This document shows, in pieces, positions 36,001 to 39,000 of a stretch of 57,849 bases of DNA. This DNA comes from Stx2-converting phage Stx2a_WGPS6: the sequence record AP012539; one strand, written 5' to 3'. A program made the position numbers. The stretch's first letter is position 1. Every line of letters starts with the position of its first letter.

Positions 36001-39000
36001 GGCACAGCCGTGTGCGGAGGTGCTGGTTCGCCTGGGAAAGGCGGAGTACATCACGGTGCGACGTCCGGCAGGTCAGAAAAAGAAACGTGATGCGGAGCAT
36101 GGCGAATGTGGAACCTTTTACGGCGAACCCGAAAAAACCAGAAATCAGGACGTGACGTAAGAGAGGCGGGCTGGACCAGCCTGTTTCAGGCGGTGGCTGA
36201 GCCCTTTTCCGGCGCCTGGCAGCAGGGCGTGAAAGCCGATCCTGAAGCCGTCCTCTCCTTTCATGCGGTGTTTGCATGTATTTCGCTGATATCCCAGGAT
36301 ATCGCCAAAATGCGGCTGCGTCTTATGCAGACGGATGCGCATGGGATACGCAGGGAAACGCGCCGGGGGGATATTGCCCGCCTCTGTCGTCGTCCCAACG
36401 CCCAGCAGAACCGCATCCAGTTTTTTGAACTGTGGCTGAACGCCAAACTGCGTCATGGCAATACGGTGGTGCTGAAAATCCGTAATGCCCGGGGGCAGAT
36501 CAAAGAACTGCGTATTCTGGACTGGAGCCGGGTTGAACCTCTGGTGGCGGATGACGGCGAGGTGTTCTACCGCATCACGCCGGACCGGAACTGCGGGATC
36601 ACGGAGGCGGTGACGGTGCCTGCCCGGGAAGTGATCCACGACCGGTTTAACTGTTTTTTTCATCCGCTTATAGGATTGCCGCCGGTGTATGCCGCCGGGC
36701 TGGCGGCCACGCAGGGGCATCATATTCAGGAAAATTCGACGTCTTTTTTCAGAAATGGCGGCAGGCCGTCCGGGGTGATTGAGATCCCCGGCAGTATTAC
36801 GGAAGAAAATGCGAAAAAACTGAAGAGCAACTGGGACAGCGGGTATACAGGCGAAAATGCGGGGAAAACGGCCATTCTGAGCAACGGGGCAAAATACAAC
36901 CCCACGACGTTTTCACCGGTGGATGCGCAGACGGTGGAACAACTGAAGATGACCGCTGAAATTGTCTGTTCGGTGTTCCGTGTCCCGGCCTACAAGATTG
37001 GCGTGGGACAACCGCCTTCCAGTGACAACGTGGAGGCGCTGGAGCAGCAGTATTATTCCCAGTGCCTGCAGACGCTGATTGAGTCCATTGAACTGTTACT
37101 GGATGAGGCGCTGGAAACGGGGGAAAACGAGAGTACAGAATTTGATGTCACCACGCTGCTGAGAATGGACAGTGAGCGGCGCATGAAAACGCTGGGGGAT
37201 GCGGTGAAAAATACGCTTCTCACGCCCAATGAGGCCCGTAAACGGGAGAACCTGCCGCCCCTGGCCGGCGGTGATGCACTGTATCTTCAGCAGCAGAACT
37301 ACAGTCTGGAGGCGCTGTCCCGTCGTGATGCCCGTGAGGATCCGTTCGCGTCTGCCGGGAAAACAGTTTCATCACAGCTGCCTGACGGCGCATCTGACGG
37401 TAATAAGGCAATCAGTGAAACAGAGCATGATGCGGTGAAAGCGATGTTCAGGGGGGATACTGAGAAAATGACGGAACGGGAACTGTCCATTATTCGTGCA
37501 CTGGGAGAAGAATTTTCCACAGTGCTGGCGGATTTACAGCGCACATTTGAGGGGAAGATGGCCTCGCAGGCACAAGCGTTTGAAGAGAAACTGACTTCCC
37601 TGTCGGCGGTATTACAGAAGCATGTGACGGTGGATGAGGTGCGTCCGGTTCTGCAGGCGATGGTGGATGACGCTGTGGGGGCCATTCCGGTACCGCGTGA
37701 TGGTCGTGATTATGATCCGGATGTACTGCAGCAGGCGGTGAATGATGCGGTCGCAAATATTCCGCAGCCGGCGGACGGTAAAAGTCTCACCCCGGATGAT
37801 GTGCGTCCGATGCTTGAACAGATGGTGAAGGAGGCTGTAAGCCATATCCCTGTTCCGCGTGATGGTCGTGACTACGATCCGGAAGTACTGCAGAAGGCGG
37901 TGAATGATGCGGTCGCAAATATTCCGCAGCCGGCGGACGGTAAAAGTCTCACCCCGGATGATGTGCGTCCGATGCTTGAACAGATGGTGAAGGAGGCGGT
38001 AAGCCATATCCCTGTTCCGCGCGACGGTCGTGACTATGATCCGGAAGTACTGCAGAAGGCGGTGAATGATGCGGTCGCAAATATTCCGCAGCCGGCAGAC
38101 GGTAAAAGTCTCACCCCGGATGATGTGCGTCCGATGCTTGAACAGATGGTGAAGGAGGCGGTAAGCCATATTCCTGTTCCGCGTGATGGTCGTGACTACG
38201 ATCCGGATGTTCTGCAGAAGGCGGTTCTGGATGCGGTGAGTGCCCTGCCGGCTCCGCAGGACGGGCGTGATGCCACGGCACTGGAAATACTCCCCGCCAT
38301 TGACGATCAAAAATCCTTTCCCCGGGGCACGTATGCCACACACCAGGGCGGACTCTGGCGGGCGTATGAAAAAACGCACGGGATGCGGGGATGGGAATGC
38401 CTGGTTGACGGGGTGGCGGATATTGACGTCAGCATGACGGGTGAGCGGTTGTTCTCTGTGGTGGTCCGGCAGAGCAGTGGCCAGCGTACGGAAAAAACAT
38501 TTTCCCTGCCGGTGATGCTCTACCGCGGTGTGTTCAGAGCCGGTGAAACCTACCACCCCGGCGATACGGTGACGTGGGGGGGCTCGCTGTGGCACTGCAA
38601 CAGTATGACCGAAGATAAACCCGGAGAAGCTCATTCATCAGCCTGGACCCTGGCTGCAAAACGTGGGCGGGATGCAGGAGGCTGAAAATGACGGCATTAC
38701 TGACACTGGAAGAGATCAAGGCACATCTGCGTGTCGACCATGACGCGGATGATGACATGCTGATGGACAAGGTTCGTCAGGCTACCGCCGTGCTGCTGGC
38801 CTACATTCAGGGCAGCCGGGATAAGGTGATTCGTGAGGACGGTGAACTGATCCCGGGCGAGGCATTAACCCGGATGAAGGGGGCTGCCATGCGACTGACC
38901 GGGGTGCTGTACCGGAATCCGGATCTTGCTGAGCGGGAAGAACTGATTCAGGGGGAGCTGCCGTTTTCTGTTTCCGTGCTGATTTACGATTTGCGTTGTC

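Follow-up and report, generated by a model that had tools for sequence, protein, structure and literature searches.

The portal gene of Stx2-converting phage Stx2a_WGPS6 (record AP012539) raises the question of why a portal protein should be followed, within a single open reading frame (ORF), by a long C-terminal extension containing tandem repeats. The window, i.e. the whole stretch of DNA that was analysed, comprises 57,849 nucleotides, and an earlier note on it had described the extension as belonging to the portal. With a probability of roughly 0.7 in our estimate, the 859-aa 'portal' is a read-through fusion of an ordinary portal with a neighbouring gene for a fibre-like protein (hereafter named ORF2), and the fusion is tolerated.

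A portal domain and a second gene in one frame

The features of the head module that bear on this question are as follows.

33957..35894, + strand: prohead protease (S78) fused to the major capsid protein, 5' of the portal
36106..38685, + strand: fused ORF (portal and ORF2), ATG start, 859 aa, as in phage 2851
36106..37467, + strand: portal part, aa 1-454 of the fused ORF
37451..37456, + strand: tract of six G residues (G6), the fusion point; relatives with five (G5) have two genes
37468..38685, + strand: ORF2, 405 aa, with its ATG at 37468-37470 (M455 of the fused ORF); a gene of its own in relatives
38688..39014, + strand: gp6-like head-tail connector (adaptor) gene, Pfam Phage_connect_1, directly 3' of ORF2

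The 859-aa ORF is annotated over its full length as portal protein in GenBank (CAQ82041.1) and RefSeq (WP_000267295.1), and PHROG phrog_2271 matches it at 859 of 859 positions. The Pfam profile Phage_portal (PF04860) scored 272.6 bits against a cut-off of 39.1 over aa 54-382 of the fused ORF (nt 36265-37251), and the match spans profile positions 2-321 of 321, which represents a full-length HK97-family portal domain (PF04860 / TIGR01537). The 859-aa frame departs from the HK97-family pattern of a single gene of about 400-480 aa that stops soon after the crown helix. A portal of 454 aa ending in KAMFRGILRK and a stop was found in G5 relatives only, where it is a gene of its own. The earlier description is right in that a conventional portal domain is followed by repeats in one ORF, but the extension is no elaboration of the portal: all 405 residues beyond aa 454 are encoded by a separate gene that lies downstream.

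The fused ORF is 100% identical over all 2580 bases in the phage 2851 record, it recurs at 99% or more over its full length in 520 records of closed E. coli genomes, and its exact 859-aa product is listed for 806 contigs. This gene frequently interrupts short-read assemblies, leaving many 'partial' proteins at contig ends, and some platforms are error-prone on homopolymer lengths; yet the sequence recurs identically in phage 2851 and in hundreds of closed genomes, and each G state is likewise reproduced in hundreds of closed genomes, so that an assembly or sequencing artefact in the repeat array or the fused frame has next to no probability. An artefact of this kind had been named in the earlier note as what would overturn its repeat claim, and these records left the claim standing.

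Five or six G residues at the junction

The G tract belongs to an AGGGGG(G) element that resembles a Shine-Dalgarno sequence and precedes the ORF2 ATG by 11 nt. When the window was aligned with phages 1717, Stx2a_1447 and Sakai Sp9, the lone internal indel was G6 versus G5, and by this alignment the extra G in the G5 tract takes the portal stop (the TGA of ATGA) out of frame and joins both frames. In the sister phages 1717, BP-4795 and Sakai Sp10, the same DNA encodes a portal of 454 aa and an ORF2 of 245-461 aa with an ATGA overlap. G5 records annotated in this way are those of 1717, Stx2a_1447, Sp10 (ECs_1974/1975), BP-4795 and Lys8385Vzw; G6 records with a single ORF are those of 2851 and Sp9 (ECs_1795). 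The window keeps both the ORF2 ATG (37468) and the upstream purine-rich element in the same position as in relatives, and its portal stop is out of frame, hence ORF2 is also reached by read-through from the portal.

Beyond these phages, Salmonella, Pseudomonas and Variovorax likewise have portal and ORF2 as two genes that overlap, and so do two assemblies from sequencing runs or metagenomes. A contig scan with a narrow back-translated pattern yielded 20 loci; wherever the genus was a different one, portal and ORF2 were found apart (19 of 19 loci). Other Enterobacteriaceae keep the ATGA overlap and an AGAGGA or AGGGGG element with the same spacing, the homologous position reading cAGAGGAtt, and in relatives the ORF2 stop overlaps the adaptor gene start as ATGA in turn. 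Given this uniform separation in other genera, and given that conservation of the portal C-terminus (KAM[LF]RG[LI]LxK followed by a stop) is confined to the split frame, the split state is, on comparative grounds, ancestral and the fusion derived.

Both G states are common in E. coli prophages. IMG/VR holds 43 G5 and 39 G6 loci, and among closed E. coli genome records the exact G6 core occurs in 752 and the exact G5 core in 367, so that G6 is the derived state of about two-thirds of E. coli copies; the 367 closed genomes contradict G5 as a recurrent sequencing error. The state tracks clades: a 73-locus tree implies about 7 changes, 5 of them singletons and possibly sequencing errors, and just one of the 850-nt flanking haplotypes includes both states. 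Genomes have a median of 1 matching place, and G5 and G6 copies coexist in the genome of Sakai (Sp9, Sp10) and in that of strain E2863. Purifying selection acts on ORF2 in either state, the dN/dS values being 0.23 (G5) and 0.15 (G6).

The junction could conceivably be a regulated recoding or phase-variation site, at which each phage yields short portal and fusion in a set ratio by a -1 shift at A_AAA_UGA (G5), a +1 shift in the G run (G6) or homopolymer slippage. The layout recalls dnaX or prfB: AGGGGG precedes AAAA-UGA-C by 9 nt, rare codons (AGG, AUA, AGA) cluster at the junction and a hairpin follows downstream (37492-37533, z = -2.3). Both G states also recur on the tree. The canonical X_XXY_YYZ heptamer is absent, however, with just A_AAA_U found, and other genera conserve neither the G run nor AAAA, having AGAGGA, other spacers and 8-11-nt overlaps instead. 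Programmed -1 frameshifting of the dnaX type was set aside on these unconserved elements and on the weakness of the hairpin, which lies 24 nt from the site, and homopolymer phase variation because 5 or 6 G are short for a contingency tract and the state is clade-structured and stable within clades. The purine-rich element is more simply read as the ORF2 ribosome-binding site, and regulated recoding is accordingly rated very improbable.

A different question is whether G6 is a loss-of-function frameshift, whose 859-aa portal cannot assemble and whose spread needs co-resident G5 helper prophages. Table 1 of Asadulghani et al. 2009 (PMC2669165) scores Sp9 (fused) as defective in portal function and Sp10 (split) as intact, and packaged Sp9 DNA is put down there to complementation by other prophages. 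The coexistence of G5 and G6 copies in single genomes and the loss of the conserved portal C-terminal peptide from the G6 frame fit this idea, as does the truncation of about 11 of 60 ORF2 copies in IMG/VR, so decay does occur in that prophage pool. It is nevertheless unlikely as an account of G6 in general: the G6 state is the commoner in closed genomes and forms deep, diversified clades, its ORF2 evolves at the low dN/dS given above, and many genomes are without a helper copy, given the median of one matching place per genome. Phage 2851 reportedly lysogenises laboratory strains. It was isolated, and is described as a transducing Stx2c phage (record FM180578).

The Sp9 score also counts against a tolerated fusion; the text consulted (PMC2669165) gives no reason for it.

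Repeats, head domain and family of ORF2

Within ORF2, the following parts were distinguished.

37474..37623, + strand: N-terminal long alpha-helix, ORF2 aa 3-52 (AlphaFold2, pLDDT 75-89)
37627..38250, + strand: stalk of 27-aa half-units (degenerate B, three full A+B units, extra A)
about 37627-37692, + strand: degenerate half-unit B, upstream of the full units
37693-37854, 37855-38016 and 38017-38178, + strand: three full 162-bp A+B units
38179 to about 38250, + strand: extra half-unit A, downstream of the full units
38257..38682, + strand: conserved beta-rich C-terminal domain of about 140 aa (model pLDDT >90)
38536..38628, + strand: CBM5/12-like (chitin-binding-domain-like) module, at the distal end of the C-terminal domain

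Tandem Repeats Finder returned a period of 162 bp with 3.3 copies over 37693..38225 (95% matches, no indels, score 982), bearing out the earlier claim of three near-identical in-frame 54-aa repeats with partial units; the three 162-bp units are 97-100% identical. The DNA repeats had also been called perfect, which is inaccurate: units 1 and 3 each agree with unit 2 at 157 of 162 bases (about 97%). At the protein level units 2 and 3 are the same, and unit 1 differs at 2 of 54 residues. Each 54-aa unit is itself double, being made up of half-units of 27 aa that have diverged from each other, A PVPRDGRDYDPEVLQKAVNDAVANI and B PQPADGKSLTPDDVRPMLEQMVKEAVSHI. A monomer model of the stalk, which at pLDDT <50 is to be read as secondary structure and not as assembly, gave helices of 13-17 residues that are joined by Pro-, Asp- and Gly-rich linkers some 12 residues long. 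Gly-X-Y runs of the PF01391 type were not found in the window, the linkers being PxPxDG[KR]D.

The expectation that copy number varies was confirmed, as intact ORF2 alleles with 0, 2, 3, 4, 5 and 6 full units were found (n = 2, 8, 31, 6, 1 and 1, respectively), and phage records and closed genomes likewise include two-unit alleles, which span about 2415 nt. Unit number would shift via unequal recombination or slippage between the near-identical units.

The ORF2 family is very large, with 5633 clusters at 50% identity (representatives at E <= 1e-3). Its 149 best representatives have a median length of 339 aa; 56 of these 149 (38%) contain at least 5 consecutive GXY triplets, with up to 57 triplets, and the GXY runs fall where the window has its repeats. 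Stalk length across the family ranges from 0 to >20 units. The sole independent portal fusion among the 149 best representatives is P0191, whose portal is only 47% identical. Pfam matches among 53 family members were to Collagen (6/53) and CBM_5_12 (46/53; E < 0.01, best 3.3e-7).

At the N-terminus, the motif ERELSxIxAxGEE is conserved, and the modelled helix is presumed to be an anchoring or oligomerisation element. At the other end, aa 719-859 of the window align to the family C-domain with 23 invariant columns among 54 sequences, following the pattern G..DA..L.I.P.I...K.Y.RG.YA.H.GGLWR...T.GMRGWEC...GD.VT.GGSLW.C....KPG...W.L..K.G.D. Two Cys residues, in GWEC and LWHC, are conserved. Against the CBM5/12 profile PF02839 the window scored 19.1 bits, below the Pfam gathering score of 26.2, and the module has a small beta fold of three strands that can be superposed on chitin-binding domains of known structure. 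Among predicted viral structures, those nearest to the C-domain are annotated as collagen, ChiC_BD or CBM5/12 proteins, and the structural neighbours of ORF2 are phage fibre or receptor-binding chains; a sequence search of solved structures with ORF2 and the family profile gave marginal matches only, to chitin-binding domains and designed helical repeats.

Public names for ORF2-family proteins include 'phage portal protein', 'phage gp6-like head-tail connector protein' and 'carbohydrate binding domain', and such names appear to have been transferred from genes nearby or from the E. coli fusion allele. PHROGs give ORF2 just 'portal protein' or 'unknown', Pfam PF28083 is precomputed on some E. 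coli ORF2 fragments, a search of NCBIfam returned no ORF2 model, and no curated name for the family was found. Literature searches for a characterisation of ORF2, for virion proteins of phage 2851 and for neck or head fibres beside portal genes returned nothing relevant, and the literature searched yielded no proteomic, ribosome-profiling or structural data on the portal-ORF2 module.

These results suggest the following scheme for the read-through fusion. Portal and ORF2, which are adjacent head-module genes, would normally be translationally coupled; the ORF2 slot lies between portal and head-tail adaptor in phages with the order TerL, protease/capsid, portal. The family plan comprises an amphipathic N-terminal helix, a variable-length stalk and a conserved beta-rich head of about 140 aa ending in the CBM5/12-like module, the stalk being made of 27-aa 'PxPxDG[KR]D plus short helix' units or, in many relatives, of genuine collagen Gly-X-Y. 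ORF2 would be a fibre in which the repeats set stalk length and the head binds a glycan, and it would be trimeric because collagen is an obligate trimer. To seek the function of the repeats in a portal protein, as the earlier note did, is then the wrong question, for they are part of a fibre-like accessory family. In the G6 allele, the portal would still work with the ORF2 moiety tethered at its C-terminal (crown) end, and the internal ribosome-binding site and ATG, being intact, might still give rise to free ORF2.

Location of the ORF2 moiety and comparison with known systems

A portal C-terminus normally points into the capsid interior. Because this interior is an odd place for a glycan-binding fibre, either the fused copy would be non-functional as a fibre or the suggestion of an external fibre would be wrong. 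In a rival reading, the family docks by its N-terminal helix on the portal crown inside the capsid, as an internal or ejected protein, and G6 hard-wires the association. The ORF2 gene always lies directly 3' of the portal gene and overlaps it, but being next to the portal is inseparable from being next to the adaptor gene. A joining of ORF2 to the C-terminus of a portal arose at least twice (the E. coli G6 lineage and P0191), and the fused allele is abundant with its ORF2 under purifying selection. By analogy, SPP1 gp7 and Mu gpF, whose genes likewise follow the portal, could serve as precedents, yet the window has no likeness to the MuF or gp7 families in sequence or profile (no match in Pfam, PHROGs or NCBIfam). 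A thin stalk, whether collagen or coiled coil, would be suited to threading the tail tube, whereas a stalk of 0 to >20 units is what is expected of exposed fibres. Peptidoglycan is chemically akin to chitin, and a CBM5/12-like head might by analogy bind it in the periplasm; other collagen-stalked, CBM-tipped phage proteins, however, are fibre or decoration proteins, and the ORF2 slot of one locus from a metagenome is filled by a PKD-domain protein, which is typical of surface decorations. Internal docking is thus considered decidedly unlikely.

A bolder version is that ORF2 proteins form a new class of portal-tethered trimeric fibres on the crown, which exit via the tail with or before the DNA and whose CBM5/12-like head grips peptidoglycan. 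This is a long shot; if true, the G6 and P0191 fusions would be the covalent version of a normally non-covalent complex, and the G5/G6 polymorphism would decide between fibre release and retention.

The read-through fusion, as the preferred reading, makes the locus a natural experiment. The portal has 405 extra C-terminal residues in about 750 closed E. coli genomes, the prototype Stx2c phage included, near-identical sister phages are without them, and the pair could show the cargo tolerance of the crown and the location of ORF2 in the virion. Its family size, conserved position and adhesin-like build make the ORF2 family a candidate unstudied host- or environment-binding component of temperate siphophages, Shiga-toxin phages among them, and it deserves a name of its own. 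Moreover, long-tailed Stx prophages can be typed by their number of 162-bp units (0-6) and by G5 or G6; both features discriminate between prophages, and both interrupt short-read assemblies.

Among known systems, HK97-family portals such as HK97 gp3 correspond to residues 1-454 of the window ORF as a full-length match, and the head module resembles that of HK97 in its TerL, S78 protease/capsid, portal, gp6-like adaptor and head-closure genes. It differs in that the ORF has 405 further residues from another gene and in the order TerL, protease/capsid, portal, as against the classical portal, protease, capsid. P22 gp1 likewise has extra polypeptide after the crown, expected to project into the capsid interior. 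Its helical barrel is an integral, conserved portion of one gene, whereas the extra part in the window is an independent gene product in nearly all relatives and has a repeat or collagen-like stalk and a beta-rich head in place of a single coiled-coil barrel. The minor head protein genes of SPP1 (gp7) and Mu (gpF, MuF) follow the portal gene and are sometimes fused to it, which ORF2 shares in its position and occasional portal fusions, although its architecture is entirely different.

Segmented coiled-coil or collagen-like phage fibres include T4 fibritin and SPP1 gp12, and EHEC prophages encode collagen-like tail-fibre proteins (PMC3368898). ORF2 resembles all of these in its succession of N-terminal anchor, stalk and distal globular domain, but it is encoded in the head module between portal and adaptor rather than in a tail-fibre module, it showed none of the domains PfN, PCoil and PfC that the EHEC proteins have, and the window stalk is built of 27-aa helix-linker units, not GXY. 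Compared with the CBM5/12 domains of chitinases (e.g. 2D49, 2RTS and 1ED7), the window module stays below the Pfam gathering cut-off and lies inside a larger beta domain for which relatives are not recognised, with no catalytic domain attached. Finally, lambda C/Nu3 are in-frame nested head-module genes whose nesting is a conserved design. The G6 allele is similar in having an intact ribosome-binding site and ATG inside a longer ORF of the same frame, so long and short products sharing a C-terminus could both arise, but in E. coli the nesting is a derived state.

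The fused portal frame and its single-G junction

The earlier note had described, from the sequence, a portal ORF with a C-terminal repeat extension, and the ORF, a Pfam portal domain and a Tandem Repeats Finder array are all present.

36106..38685 (+), fused portal ORF, 859 aa
aa 54-382 of the fused ORF (+), complete Phage_portal domain (Pfam, 272.6 bits)

Enterobacteria phage 2851 (FM180578), the prototype Stx2c-converting long-tailed phage, carries the fused-ORF stretch at 100% identity, and so do E. coli O157:H7 chromosomes, in which it is annotated as a full-length 'phage portal protein'. 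The exact 859-aa protein is recorded on 806 contigs, and 520 closed-genome records match all 2580 bases at 99% or more, ruling out an artefact as the origin of the fused ORF and its repeats.

The extension lies in the same ORF as the portal in the window, yet it belongs to a second gene fused by one G, and the earlier interpretation of it calls for revision. Used as a homology query, the last 149 residues retrieved many proteins at or near 245 aa in length, whose N-terminus, MTERELSII..., corresponds to residue 455 of the window ORF; farther homologues, including those of Salmonella and E. albertii, start with MDERELSII or MNERELSLI. Phages 1717, Stx2a_1447, BP-4795 and Lys8385Vzw, as well as Sakai prophage Sp10, have two annotated genes in this DNA, for a 454-aa portal and a downstream product of 245-461 aa (ORF2), which overlap by ATGA. 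Alignment of the window with these records revealed a single internal length difference. The window and Sakai prophage Sp9 read TTCAGGGGGGATACTGAGAAAATGACGG, with six Gs at 37451-37456 (the G6 allele), and the split phages carry five (G5). In G5 the portal frame closes with ...KAMFRGILRK-TGA and ORF2 begins at the ATG of ATGA (window 37468), while in G6 the portal frame continues directly into ORF2. Judged from these alignments, 36106..38685 combines a portal gene and a conserved fibre-like gene, so far uncharacterised, which a single G has brought into one frame.

The last six portal codons in the ancestral G5 frame include the rare AGG, AUA and AGA. The window also carries tRNA genes:

23095..23344 (+), three tRNA genes, anticodons CAT (called Met), TCG (Arg) and TCT (Arg)

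The tRNA with the CAT anticodon is possibly of the Ile-lysidine type, and Sakai Sp10 has a similar pair, tRNA-Ile (cat) and tRNA-Arg (tct). A second polymorphism is located at the 3' end of ORF2 (38677..38691 region). The gene ends with GGC TGA (...AGG, stop) in the window and Sp9, followed by 2 nt before the adaptor ATG, and with GGC GGA AAA TGA (...AGGGK, stop) in phages 1717 and 1447, where ORF2 and the adaptor gene again overlap by ATGA; each ending was found with G5 and with G6, giving an ORF2 of 405 or 407 aa. In phage vB_EcoS_phi330 (PV189401.1), the portal gene, ORF2 and several head-tail genes after them are split into short ORFs, a pattern that points to homopolymer sequencing error and not to a biological change.

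Ancestry and distribution of the two alleles

All loci examined outside this lineage have portal and ORF2 as separate genes with a slight overlap: those of Salmonella, Pseudomonas, Variovorax and two sequencing-run/metagenome assemblies, and 19 of 19 loci of other genera, among them Atlantibacter, Enterobacter, Pantoea, Citrobacter, Morganella, Marinobacter and a Clostridia MAG. The junction in other Enterobacteriaceae is alignable base for base as cAGAGGAtt(8 nt)ATGA and the portal there ends in AAKAMLRGLLTK before the stop, demonstrating conservation of a purine-rich element 11 nt 5' of the ORF2 ATG, the ATGA overlap and the split-frame portal C-terminal peptide. The split state is ancestral and G6 a derived +1 insertion, and the purine-rich element holding the G tract is most simply read as the ribosome-binding site of ORF2.

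A pattern scan of IMG/VR yielded 82 loci (43 G5 and 39 G6). Among closed E. coli genomes, 752 records contain the exact 48-nt G6 core and 367 the exact 47-nt G5 core of one haplotype; Sakai (Sp9, Sp10) and strain E2863 harbor both alleles. In a neighbour-joining tree built from 850 nt of flanking sequence, the G state was clade-bound, with about 7 changes over 73 loci, five of them singleton G5 tips within G6 clades; this is not the behaviour of a rapidly switching contingency tract. The dN/dS of the ORF2 C-domain was 0.23 in G5 and 0.15 in G6, indicating purifying selection in both groups, which together with the clade-structured state argues that the fused allele is old, successful and still constrained.

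Considering that the allele is abundant and old, that ORF2 is constrained and that phage 2851 was isolated as a transducing phage, the G6 fusion is most likely tolerated and still functional. The rival explanation, a defect rescued by co-resident prophages, draws some support from Asadulghani et al. (PMC2669165), in which the portal was scored defective in Sp9, where it is fused, and intact in Sp10, where it is split.

The repeat array, the ORF2 family and the head module

Tandem Repeats Finder located the array at 37693..38225 (period 162 bp, 3.3 copies, score 982).

starts 37693, 37855 and 38017 (+), three full 162-bp units, 54 aa each
37612..38634 (-), 340-aa ORF antisense to the repeat region, its translation also repetitive

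The antisense ORF is most likely a by-product of the repeats. The DNA repeats had been called perfect and proved near-identical only, unit 2 sharing 157/162 bases with unit 1 and with unit 3. Each 54-aa unit comprises two diverged 27-aa half-units, with a degenerate half-unit before the array and an extra one after it. The DNA identity of about 97% fits recent expansion and contraction via unequal recombination or slippage. Copy-number variation, predicted by the earlier note, was borne out: intact ORF2 genes in IMG/VR contain 0, 2, 3, 4, 5 or 6 full units (n = 2, 8, 31, 6, 1 and 1), and isolated or induced phages 0-4 (Lys8385Vzw 0, 705R7 2, 2851 3, 1717 3, BP-4795 4); about 11/60 ORF2 copies in IMG/VR are truncated. 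The tandem units are the putative variable stalk of the ORF2 product, and since their number varies down to 0 they are dispensable modules of it.

An exhaustive HMMER search displayed 5633 cluster representatives (50% identity) at E <= 1e-3 and 459 at E <= 1e-30. The best 149 of the 5633 have a median length of 339 aa, and conservation always falls in the C-terminal ~140 residues; 56 of them carry at least five consecutive Gly-X-Y triplets (up to 57 triplets), and only one, the 1237-aa P0191 with a portal of 47% identity, is a portal fusion of independent origin. Collagen runs of some members align where others have PxPxDGxD-helix units. AlphaFold2 gave a long N-terminal helix, repeats of 13-17-residue helices and ~12-residue linkers (monomer, pLDDT below 50) and a beta-rich C-domain (pLDDT above 90), the end of which matches CBM5/12 chitin-binding domains in Pfam (46/53 members), in a family-profile search against PDB sequences and in Foldseek. 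Other structural neighbours are phage tail-fibre/receptor-binding chains and proteins of uncultured phages that bear collagen, ChiC_BD or CBM5/12 annotations. Based on the family alignments, models, CBM5/12 match and structural neighbours, we infer that ORF2 would form a trimeric fibre, anchored by a helix, with a stalk of variable length and a head that binds glycan.

Two cysteines of the C-terminal domain (C149 and C215 in P0015 numbering, ~aa 765 and 831 of the window protein; motifs GWEC and LWHC) vary little or not at all in the family; they may be joined as a disulfide, which would be consistent with an extracellular location. No curated family for ORF2 was found in NCBIfam, no solved relative describing it in sequence and family-profile searches of PDB sequences, and no published description of the protein in the literature searched. 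Its database names are inconsistent: NCBI records for homologues from Klebsiella, Enterobacter, Cronobacter and others use the names 'phage gp6-like head-tail connector protein' or 'phage portal protein' for proteins that contain neither connector nor portal domain, which looks like systematic misannotation.

Two further ORFs precede the portal:

33957..35894 (+), prohead protease and major capsid protein in one 645-aa ORF (Peptidase_S78 aa 48-152, Phage_capsid aa 386-633)
35939..36160 (+), small 73-aa ORF with a 55-nt overlap with the portal start, hypothetical protein in RefSeq and several phage records

The middle part of the 645-aa protein is helical. The order TerL, protease/capsid, small ORF, portal, ORF2, adaptor recurs in Salmonella, Pseudomonas, Variovorax and the run/metagenome assemblies, with separate protease and capsid genes in some relatives. 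Same-position ORFs of 92-97 aa (Pseudomonas, one run assembly) match Pfam E3_binding. A 368-aa PKD-domain protein is inserted between portal and ORF2 in one metagenomic relative (JGI sample 3300078620), suggesting that the portal-adaptor slot gathers adhesin-like accessory genes.

Consequences of the fusion and known counterparts

The AGGGGG...AAAA-UGA-C layout at the G5 junction resembles dnaX and prfB sites.

37492..37533 (+), predicted RNA hairpin with CACUGGGAGAAGAAUUUUCCACAGUG core, 24 nt 3' of the ORF2 start

The 101-nt segment with this hairpin folds at -28.5 kcal/mol (z = -2.3). Recoding at the junction was set aside, as conservation of the layout does not extend to other genera and the hairpin that follows it is weak.

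Short of recoding, the G6 allele provides no 454-aa portal, so each subunit of the portal is expected to carry ORF2. Because portal C-termini sit at the crown, inside the capsid, tethered ORF2 would be internal, with twelve chains per portal able to form four trimers. The ribosome-binding element and ATG of ORF2 are intact in G6, and free ORF2 might still be produced through internal initiation. Lambda C/Nu3 is a nested pair with internal initiation, which the G6 fused ORF would resemble in its possible short product from an internal start. The main value of the case lies in the natural pair of fused and unfused alleles and in its pointing to a very large unnamed family, and known kinds are combined here: homopolymer gene fusion, collagen/CBM phage fibres and portal C-terminal cargo.
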